Shown here piece after piece: positions 2,034-8,844 of a stretch of DNA of 64,000 nt. Source of the DNA: Syntrophales bacterium (GTDB lineage: Bacteria > Desulfobacterota > Syntrophia > Syntrophales > PHBD01). The position numbers were made by a program, and so were the translations under genes. Each line of letters opens with the position of its first letter. The stretch's first letter is position 1. The stretch covers positions 1,952,001 to 2,016,000 of the forward strand of contig OY764159.1 in the NCBI GenBank assembly GCA_963668175.1, in the 5' to 3' direction. A model generated the notes under the pieces. It did not search any database. It saw only the letters and a program-made list of their open reading frames with translations, and had not been told where the DNA came from.

Positions 2034-3857
2034 CTAAAAATCGTCGTCCAGCGGCAATTCGGGTTGGCGTGGCCGGACGGATTTTTCTTTTCCCCGCGCC
2101 GGCGGCGCTGCATCGAGGACCGCATCCCGGGTGACGACCGCACCGGTATTGCCGCCCAGGACCAGGGACGACATATCCAGCACCATACCCTTCATCGTCG
2201 CGGCCTGGGAGGACAGCTCCTCGGCCGCCGCCGCCGATTCCTCGGCGCTGGCCGCCGTGTCCTGGACGACCTTGTCCATGGCGGATACGGCCTTGTTGAT
2301 CTGGTCGATCCCCTGGGATTGTTCCTGGGAAGCCGTCGCGATCTCGTCGACGAGGCTGCCGACCTTGCCGGCGATCTCCACGTTCTCCTTGAATATCTCC
2401 TGCGTCTGCGTGGTCAGCTCGTTGCTCTTGCGCACAACCTTGATCGTGTTCTCGATCAGCACGGTCGTGTTCTTGGCGGCATCCGCCGCGCGCATGGCGA
2501 GGTTCCTCACTTCCTCGGCGACCACGGCGAAACCCGCCCCGGCTTCCCCCGCCCGGGCCGCTTCCACGGCGGCGTTCAGGGCGAGGAGATTCGTCTGGAA
2601 GGCGATCTCGTCGATCGTCCTGACGATCTTCGACGTCTCTTCGCTGGTCTTGGTCACTTCCTGGATGGCCGATGCCATATCGGTCATACGGTCGTTGACT
2701 TTGGAGACGATGGCCCTTGTTTCCGCCATCAGCGATTTGGCGGCTACGGCGTTCTCGGCGTTGCGCTTCGTCATGGAGGACATCTCTTCCAGCGACGACG
2801 AGGTCTCCTCGATGGCGGAGGCCTGCTGCGCGGCGCCGTCGGCCAGGGACTGGCTCGTCATGGCGACCTCGGAAGAAGCGGAGGCCACCTGATCGGCGCC
2901 CGCGTCGAGACCGCCGGATATCCTTGTGATCGGCCCGACGACGGATCGGACGATGAGAATGAGCAGGGCCATCAGAACGGCCACGCCGCCGACCAGGAGG
3001 ACCAGATTAACGACGGTCATCCGGTTCGCCGCGGCGAGCACTTCACTCGTGGGCGCCACCACCAGCACGGTCCATCCTACGTTCCGGCAGGGGTATAAAT
3101 AGGCCGTCCTCTTCGTATTCTGAAAGGTGTAGCTGATTTGTCCCTGCTTCTGCTTCATCATCTCCCGGCCGAACTCCTGATCCTTCAGGTTCAGTTTCAT
3201 GATCAGGCTCTTGTCCTTGTGGGCGAAGACAAGCCCGGTCTCTTCGTACAGGGCGACGTAGCCGGTGGTGAATACCTTCGCCCCCTCCACGAGACTCTCG
3301 CTGAACTTCACCAGATCCGGCACGCCGACCAGGACGCCGATCACCCGGTCGCCGTCCGTGATGGGCGAGGCGATGGCCAGGGACGCTTGACCGGTGGTGC
3401 GGGAGAGATAGACCTCGGAGACGTTGGTCTCGCCCTTCATGGCCTTCTGGAAGTAGGCCCGGTCCGGGACCTTGACCTTGCCGATGGCATCCGGCATCGA
3501 CGATGCGACGACATTGCCTTGCTGGTCGGCGATATTGAAGTAGGCGAACCCCGAGGTGGCCTTGACGATTTCAGCCATGGCGGCGTTCGCGATGCCCACC
3601 GACTTTTCGTCCCCCGATTTCAGGACGTTCCTGAAGACGTCCCGCGGGGCCTGCGTACGCACCGTGGACATGGCATTGGCCACCCACAGGTCGACCAGGT
3701 TGGCCCTCGCTTCGCCGATCGTCCGGAACATCTCGGTCGCATTGTCGCTGAGCGTCCGGGACGAGATCCAGTAAGTGACGCCCGTGGATACGCCCATGGC
3801 GAGAACGACCAGTAAAAACGTCGGTATCAAAACCCTCTTCTGCAGACTCCAGCGCAT
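2034..3857 (-). CDS. Methyl-accepting chemotaxis protein with dCache sensor (tandem copy 1)
   Basis: Two TM helices, Cache-like periplasmic region ([11 protein letters not shown]), signalling tip [33 protein letters not shown]. Confidence 0.95.
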
Positions 3858-4596: not shown

Positions 4597-6420
4597 CTAA
4601 AATTCGTCCCCCCCCGGCAGTGCCTTTTGAGGCGACCGGACGGGTTTTTTCTTGTCCATCTTGGACGGGGCGGCGGGAACGGTCGCATCCCGTGTGACGA
4701 CCGCACCGGTATTGCCGCCCAGGACCAGGGACGACATATCCACCACCATGCCCTTCATCGTCGCGGCCTGGGAGGACAGCTCCTCGGCCGCCGCCGCCGA
4801 TTCCTCGGCGCTGGCCGCCGTGTCCTGGACGACCTTGTCCATGGCGGATACGGCCTTGTTGATCTGGTCGATCCCCTGGGACTGTTCCTGGGAGGCCGAC
4901 GCGATCTCGTCGACGAGGCCGCCGACCTTGCCCGCGATCTCCACGTTCTCCTTGAATATCTCCTGCGTCTGCGTGGTCAGCTCGTTGCTCTTCCGCACGA
5001 CCTTGATCGTGTTCTCGATCAGCACGGTCGTATTCCTGGCAGCGTCGGCCGCCCGCATGGCGAGGTTCCTCACTTCCTCGGCGACGACGGCGAAGCCCGC
5101 CCCGGCCTCCCCCGCCCGGGCCGCTTCCACGGCGGCGTTCAGGGCGAGGAGGTTTGTCTGGAAGGCGATCTCGTCGATCGTCTTGACGATCTTCGACGTC
5201 TCTTCGCTGGTCTTGGTCACCTCCTGGATAGCGGCGGCCATACCGGTCATATGGTCGTTGACTTTGGACACAATGGCCCTCGTCTCCGCCATCAGTTCCT
5301 TGGCGGCGCTGGCGTTCTCGGCGTTGCGCTTCGTCATGGAGGACATCTCCTCCAGCGACGACGAGGTCTCCTCGATGGCGGAGGCCTGCTGTGCGGCGCC
5401 GTCGGCCAGGGACTGGCTCGTCGTGGCGACCTCGGATGAGGCCGACGCCACCTGATCGGCGCCCGCGTCGAGACCGCCGGATATCCTCGTGATCGGACCG
5501 ACGACGGATCGGACGATGATAATGAGCAGGGCCATCAGGACGGCCACGCCGCCGACCAGGAGAACCAGGTTGACGACGGTCATCCGGTTCGCCGCGGCGA
5601 GCACTTCACTCGTGGGCGCCGCTGCCAGCACGGTCCATCCCACAATCCGGCAGGGGTATATATAGGCCGTCTGCTTCGCGCCCTGAAAGGTGTAGCTGAT
5701 CTGGCCCTGCTTCAGCTTCATCATCTCGCGGCCGAACTCCTGATCCTTCAGGTTCAGCTTCATGATCTGACTCTTGTCCTTGTGGGCGAAGACGAGGCCG
5801 GTCTCTTCGTACAGGGCGACGTAGCCCGTCGTGAAGACCTTGGCCTTGTCTACGAGACTCTCGCCGAATTTCGTCAGGTCCGGCACGCCGATCAGTACGC
5901 CGATCACCCTGTCGCCGTCCTTGATGGGAGAGGCGAGGGCCAGGGACGCCTGCCCGGTGGTGCGGGAAAGAAATACGCTGGAGACGTTGGTCTGCCCCTT
6001 CAAGGCCTTCTGGAAATACTCCCGGTCGGGAACCTTGATCTTGCCGACGGCATCCTTCACGCCCGAAGCGATGATGTCCCCCTTCGGATCGGCAACATGG
6101 AAATAGGCGAAGGCCGAGGATATCTTGGCAAGTTCGACCATGGCGGCATTCGCGGCGGCGACGTTGTGTTCGTCCCCGGATTTCAGGACGGTTTTAAAGA
6201 TATCCCGCGTCGATGCCGCAATCATCGTTTCCGTGGCATCGTTCACCCACAGGTCGACGAGATTGGCCCTGGCCTCGCCGATGGTCCTCAGTATCTCTGA
6301 CGCATTGTCGTTGAGCGCCCGGGACGACATCCAGTAAGTGACTCCCGTGGAAATGCCCATGGCGAGAACGACGAGTAAGAATGTTGGTATTAAAACCCTT
6401 TTTTGCAGACTCCAGCGCAT
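4597..6420 (-). CDS. Methyl-accepting chemotaxis protein with dCache sensor (tandem copy 2)
   Basis: Same length (607 aa) and architecture as 2034-3857, with a near-identical signalling domain. Confidence 0.95.
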
Positions 6421-7076: not shown

Positions 7077-8387
7077 TTAGGAGGCCCGCGTCGCCGTCCC
7101 GGCATTCGTCACATTCTCTGAGGGGTTCATGGCGGCGGCTGGCAGGTCCGGATGTTTGGCTTCCGGCGGCAGGCGGAGGCCGCGCGAGGGGATGACGCCG
7201 CCCTGCATCCGCCTTATCTGGCGGACGGCCTGGCGGATGCGTTCTTCGTTTTCCACCAGGGCGATGCGGAGCCAACCCTCGCCCTCCGGCCCGAAGCCGA
7301 TGCCCGGCGCGACGACGACGTTGGCCTCCTCGATGAGCCTGATGGAGTAATCCATGGAGCCCATGGCCCGGTAAGGCTCCGGGATCTCGGCCCAGACGAA
7401 CATGGAGGCCTTTGGCTTCTCCACGGTCCAGCCGATGGCGGCGAGTCCGTCGCAGAGGCAGTCGCGGCGGCTCTCGTAAATGGCCGCCTGCCCGCCGATG
7501 AAGTCGTCGCAGTCCCGGACGGCGATGATCGCCGCGATCTGGACGGCCTGGAAGAGGCCGTAGTCGTAATAGCCCTTGATCTTCCCCAGGGCCTCGACGA
7601 TCCGCGGGTGCCCGGCGCAGTAGCCTACGCGCCATCCCGCCATGTTGTAGCTCTTGGAGAGGGTGCCGAACTCGACGCCGACGTCCTTCGCGCCTTTCGC
7701 CTGGAGGAAGCTCGGGGCCTCGTAGCCGTCGAAGGTCACGCGGCCGTAGGCATGGTCGTGGACGACGATGAGCTTGCGGCGCTTCGCGATCCTCACCATC
7801 TCCTCGAAGAAGGCGAGATCGACGGTCTTCGTCGTCGGGTTGTGGGGATAGTTCAGCATGATCGCCTTCGGCGCCGGCGTGAGCGTGCGGCAGAGGTCGT
7901 CCACGCTCTGCAGGAAGGCTTCGTCTTCGACGATGGGGACGCGGACGATGGAGGCCCCGGCGATCGTGCACGAATAGATATGGATGGGGAAGGCGGGCAC
8001 GGGGACGAGGGCGGTGTCGCCCGGCCCGAGCAGGACGAGCGACAAATGGGAGACGCCCTCTTTGGAGCCGATGGTGCAGAGGATTTCGCCCGCGGGGTCC
8101 AGGGAGACGCCGTAATGCCTCTCGTAGTAGCGGCCGATCTCGCGCCTCAGGTTGTAGATCCCCGAGGCCACGGAGTACCGGTGGTTCCGCGGGTCGTTCA
8201 CGACCTCGCAGAGCTTGTCCACGACGGGCTGCGGCGTCGGGTCGCTGGGGTTGCCCATGGCGAAATCGATCATGTCGATCCCCGCCTTCCTCTTCTCCAG
8301 TTTGATCTTATTGAGCCGCCCGAAGAGATAGGGCGGCAGCATGTCCATGCGGTCTGAAAATGTTACGAAGTCTTCTGTATCGTTCAT
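7077..8387 (-). CDS. alaC: Class I/II PLP aminotransferase, AlaC-like glutamate-pyruvate (alanine) aminotransferase
   Basis: Motifs as I recall them from E. coli AlaC: LPPY, DFxMGNP, TIGSKEG, PIHIY, TLSKSYNMAGWR, IKxYxDYG, PKASMxVWAxIPEPY, PGIGFG, ALxENxxRIRQA. Start moved to ATG 8387 (RBS AGGAG). DapL-like specificity is not formally excluded. Confidence 0.8.
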   Translation of the reverse strand: MNDTEDFVTFSDRMDMLPPYLFGRLNKIKLEKRKAGIDMIDFAMGNPSDPTPQPVVDKLCEVVNDPRNHRYSVASGIYNLRREIGRYYERHYGVSLDPAGEILCTIGSKEGVSHLSLVLLGPGDTALVPVPAFPIHIYSCTIAGASIVRVPIVEDEAFLQSVDDLCRTLTPAPKAIMLNYPHNPTTKTVDLAFFEEMVRIAKRRKLIVVHDHAYGRVTFDGYEAPSFLQAKGAKDVGVEFGTLSKSYNMAGWRVGYCAGHPRIVEALGKIKGYYDYGLFQAVQIAAIIAVRDCDDFIGGQAAIYESRRDCLCDGLAAIGWTVEKPKASMFVWAEIPEPYRAMGSMDYSIRLIEEANVVVAPGIGFGPEGEGWLRIALVENEERIRQAVRQIRRMQGGVIPSRGLRLPPEAKHPDLPAAAMNPSENVTNAGTATRAS

Positions 8388-8464
8388 GGCCGTTGTTCTC
8401 CTGAAAAATCGTCCCTCCGTTCGCCTGCCCTTTCGCCGCCGGAGGGGGGCGGGGAGAGGAAATG

Positions 8465-8495
8465 AAAAAAGCCCCGGACATATGCCGCCCGGGGC
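8465..8495 (-). terminator. Attenuator terminator in the alaC leader
   Basis: Minus strand GCCCCGGGC-GGCATAT-GTCCGGGGC-TTTTTT: 9-bp stem plus U6, 78 nt upstream of the alaC start. Confidence 0.85.
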
Positions 8496-8566
8496 CCTGA
8501 AAGCAGGAAGGCCATGGACGGCACGAATGCGACCGCCCATGGCCTTTGATGTCTTATGTGAAAAAG

Positions 8567-8653
8567 TTACAGGAAGGCATCACCAGCCATGGGCGGAAGA
8601 GCCCTGGCGGCCGCTGCTGCCGCTGCGAAATGGATCGTTCCCGTAACGTTCAT
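8567..8653 (-). CDS. Alanine-rich leader peptide MNVTGTIHFAAAAAAARALPPMAGDAFL (28 aa)
   Basis: SD AAGAAAGG 6 nt before ATG; GCA GCG GCA GCA GCG GCC GCC at 8606-8626; lies between the promoter and the terminator of alaC. Below the ORF-track size cutoff. Confidence 0.8.
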   Translation of the reverse strand: MNVTGTIHFAAAAAAARALPPMAGDAFL

Positions 8654-8666
8654 CTCATGCCTTTCT

Positions 8667-8844
8667 TAGCAGGCTGTTGAAAAACGCCCATCTGTCGCGT
8701 TGCGCTGCAAGCCGCGTCAATCGACATACTTCTATGTATGCCTCATTCCTTGGCTTTTGCGCGCCTTACATCTGGACATTTTTGAACAGCCTGCGTGCCC
8801 CCTGCATAGGGGGTTCAAAAGCGAGTTTTTCCACAAGCTGTTAG
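8667..8844 (+). mobile_element. MITE/REP-like non-coding repeat, copy A
   Basis: IR GCAGGCTGTTGAAAAA...TTTTTGAACAGCCTG plus outer end TTTTTCCACAAGCTGTTAG; a homologous inverted copy lies at 35137-35333. Confidence 0.8.

Follow-up and report, generated by a model that had tools for sequence, protein, structure and literature searches.

The window, by which we mean the whole 64,000-nucleotide stretch analysed here, carries on its minus strand an AlaC-like aminotransferase gene preceded by a short alanine-rich leader ORF and a series of segments that can pair in alternative ways. The parts of the locus, with the evidence on which each was placed, are the following.

8886-8858, minus strand: putative sigma-70 promoter, TTGACA (8886-8881), a 17-nt spacer and TTTAAT (8863-8858), its function predicted from the sequence
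8840-8670, strand unassigned: MITE-like repeat of ~171 bp whose terminal inverted repeats match imperfectly, with CTAA flanking it at each end (8844-8841 and 8669-8666), lying between the promoter and the leader SD
8667-8660, minus strand: Shine-Dalgarno sequence (SD) of the leader ORF, AAGAAAGG, 6 nt 5' of the ATG (sequence)
8653-8567, minus strand: leader ORF of 28 aa with seven consecutive Ala codons and 10 Ala in total (sequence; an Ala-run uORF is kept in relatives)
8626-8606, minus strand: Ala7 codon run, the putative sensor (sequence)
8621-8601, minus strand: segment A, the last Ala codons plus AGGGC, partner of segment 1 (MFE fold and duplex tests)
8596-8586, minus strand: segment 1 (B), within the leader ORF, partner of A or of segment 2 (duplex tests)
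8546-8533, minus strand: segment 2 (C) (covariation of the 2:3 helix)
8523-8508, minus strand: segment 3 (D) (covariation of 2:3 and of the antiterminator 3:4)
8498-8483, minus strand: segment 4 (E), which contributes the 5' arm to the terminator and the 3' arm to the antiterminator (covariation)
8479-8465, minus strand: segment 5 (F, 8479-8471) and U6 tract (8470-8465), forming a predicted intrinsic terminator with segment 4 (fold, terminator scan and covariation)
8387-7077, minus strand: PLP class I/II aminotransferase, AlaC-like paralogue of 436 aa, the putative regulated gene (NCBIfam, PDB match and tree)

An initial annotation had described the leader ORF with its Ala codons, the SD, segments 1 to 5, the U6 tract and the four pairings 1:2, 2:3, 3:4 and 4:5, all of which are present in the sequence where it had placed them. 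Its list lacked a sixth segment, A, and it overlooked both a conserved -35 box and the repeat 5' of the leader SD. The minimum free energy fold of 8680-8440 contains 2:3 together with 4:5 (-109.3 kcal/mol, z -5.42, 0 of 200 shuffles as good), and the 4:5 hairpin is picked up by a terminator scan. We further note a GC-rich, hairpin-capable stretch at 8410-8460, between the terminator and the aminotransferase SD, that is absent from the closest orthologues. Elsewhere in the window, two tandem and very similar methyl-accepting chemotaxis proteins of 607 aa (2034-3857 and 4597-6420, minus strand) point to a recent duplication.

To place the aminotransferase among its relatives, 80 homologous loci and 23 further regions were gathered, and a tree was made from 102 proteins, leaving out L053 (internal stop) and L085 (duplicate of L017). 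The window protein falls in a clade of 43 Desulfobacterota proteins (FastTree support 1.0, midpoint root), separate from a widespread AlaC-like group that often has downstream a gene which, from its N-terminus, we take to be that for homoserine dehydrogenase (hom). Absence of Ala-rich uORFs from orthologous leaders had been named beforehand as a possible refutation, and such uORFs were found: when loci with 300 nt or more of upstream sequence are counted, 22 of 42 clade genes and none of 58 homologues outside the clade have before them a short ORF with at least five Ala in eight codons. These counts come from related genomes and are not independent samples. Any other residue reaches the same criterion in at most 3 of the 42 clade genes, and upstream GC content is 47% in the clade vs 53% outside it. 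The four genomes that hold both paralogues (L084/L094, L085/L095, L086/L097 and L087/L096) have the leader before the clade copy only. The leader is absent in about half of the clade, including two sub-groups that mostly or wholly lack it (L003, L004, L006-L012, L018, L019, L027 and L089; L016, L020-L022, L024 and L065).

A covariance model built from 25 leaders found 16 further full-length strong matches in 151 genomes of the order, 15 of them before genes of this aminotransferase family and one interrupted by the end of its contig. The Ala criterion (at least five in eight codons) is reached by 13 of these 15; five of the 15 are, or look identical to, training sequences, and eight of the other ten qualify. 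Among metagenome loci with enough upstream DNA (67, a further 13 of the 80 being too short), 38 have an Ala uORF, one of them probably by chance, and 44 match the model (some of them duplicates), leaving 23 without a match.

The pattern of conservation within the leader ORF bears on how it might act. Third positions of the Ala run vary among GCA, GCC, GCG and GCT in orthologues, while Ala itself is mostly kept. The peptide 3' of the run is variable and often ends early in relatives, and segment 1 is retained also in L081, L184 and L053, where the uORF ends short of it or inside it, which suggests that segment 1 is kept as RNA and that no arrest peptide is involved. A sensor of the arrest-peptide type (SecM, TnaC, ErmCL) was accordingly rejected, as there is no conserved C-terminal motif and some ORFs stop within a few codons of the run. 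Stalling at Pro-Pro (EF-P) was also rejected, as the 'PP' after the run is not kept in the orthologues seen.

The helices themselves are conserved to differing degrees. Across the 25-sequence alignment, 90.9% of the cells of 2:3 and 4:5 are paired, with two-sided changes in 13 of 20 pairs; none of 500 shuffles reaches the score, and slid controls give 29-50%. The same helices in 44 distinct held-out sequences, in an alignment fitted to the model, are 92.9% paired with two-sided changes in 14 of 20 pairs. The core of the 3:4 antiterminator is 80.9% paired and six of its seven pairs show two-sided changes; its covariation score is reached by 0 of 500 shuffles and its pair-count measure by 62 of 500. 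In six of the 25 sequences MAFFT places segment 1 out of register, and 1:2 was therefore counted in the remaining 19; there 86.5% of cells are paired with weak covariation (the score is reached in 20 and the two-sided pair count in 83 of 500 shuffles). The covariation that the initial annotation had proposed to look for in orthologous leaders is thus present in 2:3, 4:5 and 3:4, and 1:2 is conserved but only weakly covarying.

Pairing between A and segment 1, whose register differs between sub-groups, was assessed by duplex tests, in which each sequence's own partner was compared with the median foreign partner. The own partner wins for A:1 in 23, 1:2 in 22, 2:3 in 24, 3:4 in 23 and 4:5 in 21 of the 25 sequences, and in 34, 40, 36, 32 and 37, respectively, of the 44; non-adjacent control pairs do so in 11-17 of 25 and 16-29 of 44. 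These comparisons show that six segments with the potential to form A:1, 1:2, 2:3, 3:4 and 4:5 plus the U-tract are conserved in relatives of the window leader.

The switching direction had been proposed as stalling on Ala codons giving 1:2 and 3:4, and ample alanine giving termination. Footprint folding, an equilibrium approximation in which the ribosome footprint is forced single-stranded and the transcript ends before segment 5, agrees with this direction. A stall in mid-run leaves 3:4 formed in 20 of 25 leaders, and a ribosome at the stop codon leaves it in three (all upstream sequence blocked) or nine (28-nt footprint). The window leader has 12.7 expected 3:4 pairs when stalled vs 0.0 with the ribosome at the stop. 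At full-length equilibrium, 17 of the 25 stalled models, among them that of the window leader, still form the terminator; switching would therefore have to depend on kinetics, which is the rule for attenuators. The leaders share the sequence marks of a classical attenuator (an SD and consecutive codons for a single residue, a predicted intrinsic terminator and a mutually exclusive antiterminator), and also its spacing, as in the footprint models most sequences switch before segment 5 emerges.

In the mechanism that we propose, RNA polymerase would transcribe the leader with a ribosome following behind. When Ala-tRNA is low, the ribosome would stall on the Ala run and cover A, leaving segment 1 free to pair with 2; segments 3 and 4 would then pair, no terminator would form and the enzyme gene would be transcribed. 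With ample Ala-tRNA the ribosome would reach the stop codon, and segment 1, either covered or re-paired with A behind the ribosome, would be unavailable, so that 2:3 and 4:5 would form and transcription would end near 8465. A leader that is not translated would fold into A:1, 2:3 and 4:5 and would likewise terminate. The enzyme, once made, would replenish alanine from pyruvate. We consider it highly likely, from sequence comparison and folding, that the leader is a ribosome-coupled attenuator responding to the availability of Ala-tRNA(Ala), and that its target is an AlaC-like aminotransferase which probably forms alanine and which the leader very probably switches on at alanine shortage.

Upstream of the leader, the putative promoter is missing from the promoter scan because its -10 element has no A at position 2. 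A TTGAC[AT] motif, the conserved -35 box, lies 71-138 nt 5' of the Ala run in all 23 orthologous leaders checked. The distance from promoter to Ala run is ~260 nt in the window and ~85 nt without the repeat, inside the orthologue range, which suggests that the repeat entered a conserved leader at a later time. A further 46 blastn pieces of this repeat occur in the genome, the flanks of four other copies were compared, and loose contig ends fall at the repeat boundaries, 8670 and 8845. The end of the repeat can pair with the leader SD, whose GG has an unpaired probability of 0.06 and 0.03 in the equilibrium fold; the insertion may thus partly mask the SD in the window genome. A 25-codon ORF (8727-8650, minus strand) starts in the repeat and ends on the leader start codon with an ATGA overlap, and could couple translation into the leader ORF. 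At one other locus (L044:2096-2500), ~200 extra nucleotides separate terminator and gene, possibly another repeat insertion.

The identity of the enzyme is approached through family models. The best NCBIfam match, in line with the AlaC-like label of the initial annotation, is to the alanine transaminase family PRK08175 (NF006033), at 512.5 bits; this is below the AlaC cut-off of 647, and we therefore infer the activity of the enzyme. Other clade members score similarly on the AlaC model (L002 536.3 and L014 511.9 bits). A point against the proposed role is that of the leaderless hom-linked paralogues L100 passes the cut-off, at 680.7 bits, and L094 reaches 632.7. The best PDB match is 2x5d (E 1e-125). 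The C-terminal tail of the protein extends ~40 aa beyond homology, matches ending near residue 394 (window 7077-7200). On the same strand, no long ORF has its start within 450 nt of the end of the aminotransferase gene. Related large ORFs lie directly downstream of the aminotransferase in L002, L081 and L083, with a stop/start overlap in two of them.

Weak matches to the leader model, at 43 places in 151 genomes of the phylum, extend these observations beyond alanine; 30 of them were fetched as loci and two more were read. Most of them resemble the model in the sequence pattern of 2:3 and 4:5 but have other codon runs in place of Ala. Among the 28 fetched loci outside the Ala clade, the sensor matches the NCBIfam-named downstream gene in 17, with Trp runs before TrpB-like genes, Phe/Tyr/Trp runs before DAHP or ADH synthase and Leu runs before leuB. 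The remaining 11 include four that, outside the NCBIfam scan, appear from their sequence to show such a match too, two that precede transporter binding proteins, two aromatic runs before PRK06836 aminotransferases (L119 and L127) and two with no clear sensor (L129, which precedes an unassigned gene, and L130). At L106 a Trp run precedes a TRAP binding protein, and at L112 an Ala run precedes a PRK06855 aminotransferase. The window's own genome holds four candidate attenuators of this kind:

G000:C1:71413-71558: L135, Phe/Tyr/Trp run before DAHP synthase
491460-491603: L136, Val run before ilvB
1715105-1715264: L138, Leu run before leuA
3384886-3384957: L134, Phe run before an ABC-type binding protein, possibly of a phenylalanine transporter

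The L112 protein is only 23% identical to the window protein over 197 residues, and the structures closest to it are 1xi9 and that of E. coli AlaA. Relatives of L112 with enough upstream DNA have an Ala uORF in six of eight loci and a model match in five of eight. The presence of an Ala run before so distant an enzyme supports alanine as the signal, and the strongest indirect argument that AlaA-like and AlaC-like enzymes both make alanine is that genes of both kinds carry the sensor. L170-L175, from a single family of the phylum, have Ala-run leaders in front of PRK06855 aminotransferases of the AlaA-like type. The idea that the two enzyme families with Ala leaders are distributed in a complementary way was rejected: an AlaA-like gene is present in 39 of 41 Syntrophales genomes, the window genome included, and none of the 30 such loci fetched has an Ala leader before it (L153 had only 30 nt upstream, and the best uORF of L146 has four scattered Ala). 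Possibly there are two alanine transaminases, of which the window gene encodes the inducible one. The shared pattern suggests common descent of the scaffold. We lean, by somewhat more than even chances, towards a single portable scaffold in Desulfobacterota with a swappable sensor (Ala, Trp, Phe/Tyr, Leu or Val), of which a dedicated Ala version acts directly on enzyme genes before the AlaC-like and AlaA-like families.

Several other readings of the locus have to be weighed against an alanine attenuator. GCN runs are common at high GC, and the 4.57-Mb genome has 164 runs of at least five GCN codons on both strands, so that such a run could lie by chance beside an ordinary terminator. Only nine rows of that scan fall within a short ATG ORF, and the two with a T6 tract downstream are both this locus, one being its antisense mirror; seven other short Ala-run ORFs of the genome were inspected and had no attenuator context, most lying inside or antisense to other ORFs. 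The conservation of the Ala-run leader among relatives, confined to the clade, together with synonymous variation in the run and covarying helices, refutes chance, to which we give a negligible probability. Control through translation or mRNA stability in at least some members, or a window copy disabled by its repeat, is quite improbable. No U-tract follows the last hairpin in L033, L057 and L090 (3 of 25), nor in L216 and L217, and in L033 and L090 that hairpin lies near the gene's SD; such leaders may act on translation instead. Of the aligned leaders, on the other side, 22 of 25 and 44 of 49 have a tail of at least five T, and the window terminator is a 9-bp GC stem with U6 some 60 nt from the aminotransferase SD. 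As for a disabled copy, the possible pairing of the repeat end with the leader SD speaks for it, whereas a contig from a second study agrees with the leader (8303-8699) letter for letter. It is a shade less probable still that the attenuator is real and serves as a general sensor of translation stress (antibiotics, broad starvation or trans-translation load), the Ala run merely biasing its response. Any stall inside the run would free segment 1, and the Ala-rich uORF of whiB7 answers many stalling signals (PMC10274678; bioRxiv 10.1101/2025.10.10.681568). Here, however, the uORF is short, the Ala run alone is conserved at a fixed distance to segment 1, the target is an enzyme and no stress regulator, and the sister scaffolds carry codons matched to their pathways.

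The alternative with the largest remaining weight, though still unlikely, is that the switch senses alanine and the enzyme is no alanine synthase, being for example DapL or another transaminase that tracks the need for alanine or pyruvate. The LL-DAP aminotransferase models score close to the AlaC model on the window protein (470.8 and 467.3 bits, no cut-off passed), the hom-linked AlaC-like genes form a clade from which this one has diverged, and a separate, leaderless AlaA-like gene is present in the genome. Against this, the DapL model TIGR03540 (cut-off 593.25) gives the window protein 436 bits and gives 584 to a paralogue at genome positions 929,936-931,084, adjoining a gene that from its N-terminus we take to be dapF. 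This weakens the DapL reading of the window enzyme, and the dapF-linked paralogue is, by these scores, the better DapL candidate. An alanine-forming enzyme is further favoured by the Ala leaders before the AlaA-like family, and by the observation that a search of the genome with TIGR00518 found no alanine dehydrogenase.

The classical attenuators known so far mostly respond to Trp, His, Phe, Thr, Leu and Ile/Val. That of the his operon consists of six segments, pairing as A:B, C:D and E:F or as B:C and D:E. The initial annotation had likened the window leader to this multi-hairpin attenuator, and the addition of A:1 strengthens the likeness by completing a his-type layout. In hisL, as at the window locus, a short ORF with seven consecutive regulatory codons governs a choice between terminator and antiterminator (PMC3896937). 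The his attenuator of E. coli and Salmonella differs in sensing His, whereas the window leader carries Ala codons before a single aminotransferase gene in Desulfobacterota. None of 4227 Rfam families, which include His_leader, Trp_leader, Leu_leader, T-box and the riboswitches, matches the window at its gathering threshold, and there is therefore no detectable homology to the his leader.

The closest precedent for alanine is mycobacterial, and the earlier suggestion that no alanine attenuator had been characterised was too strong. The 'Ala leader' of whiB7 is an Ala-rich uORF that switches between terminator and antiterminator, with feedback on the alanine aminotransferase aspC (PMC10274678; bioRxiv 10.1101/2025.10.10.681568; PMC13236596); why it should be an 'Ala leader' is an open question to its authors (PMC10274678). 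It thus resembles the window type in its switch and in having an alanine aminotransferase at the end of the loop. Its uORF is long and diverse, however (83 aa with 24.1% Ala in M. smegmatis; bioRxiv 10.1101/2025.10.10.681568), and it responds to many amino acids and antibiotics and acts indirectly, through a transcription factor (PMC10274678; bioRxiv 10.1101/2025.10.10.681568), whereas the window type has a block of 4-7 Ala codons in a short ORF directly on an enzyme gene. The three-hairpin ilvBNC and ilvB1 attenuators of actinobacteria also combine a uORF of regulatory codons with mutually exclusive hairpins 5' of a biosynthesis gene, but they sense branched-chain amino acids and belong to another phylum (PMC11857589; PMC13236596).

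E. coli AlaC represents the best family match of the window enzyme (PRK08175), although the latter scores below the cut-off and its clade stands apart from the hom-linked AlaC-like genes. We know of no leader-peptide control of E. coli alaC. The gene (yfdZ) encodes a glutamate-pyruvate aminotransferase and is activated by SgrR (PMC4021124). In the main text of openly searchable papers we found no case of a compact Ala attenuator placed before an enzyme gene, alaC and alaA included, and none in Desulfobacterota. For delta-proteobacteria, surveys by the Lyubetsky group reportedly predicted attenuators of trp, thr, ilv, leu and phe genes. The main text of PMC2965389 does not mention alanine, aminotransferase or Desulf-, and that of PMC4833913 does not mention Ala or aminotransferase. 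Alanine-tuned attenuation therefore has a precedent in whiB7, and the compact Ala-run form directly on an enzyme gene is a new variation of a textbook mechanism.

If the alanine attenuator is real, cells would gauge Ala-tRNA charging as a stand-alone signal. The leader is conserved across Syntrophales and other Desulfobacterota, and would give a function to a clade of aminotransferases; it would also supply a small biosensor part for alanine. It would open a set of leader attenuators without an Rfam match (as judged in the window) in a phylum for which no papers on them were found. If the scaffold is indeed portable, its sensor codons would predict the function of this clade, of PRK06855 and PRK06836, and of the TRAP and ABC binding proteins that follow such leaders.
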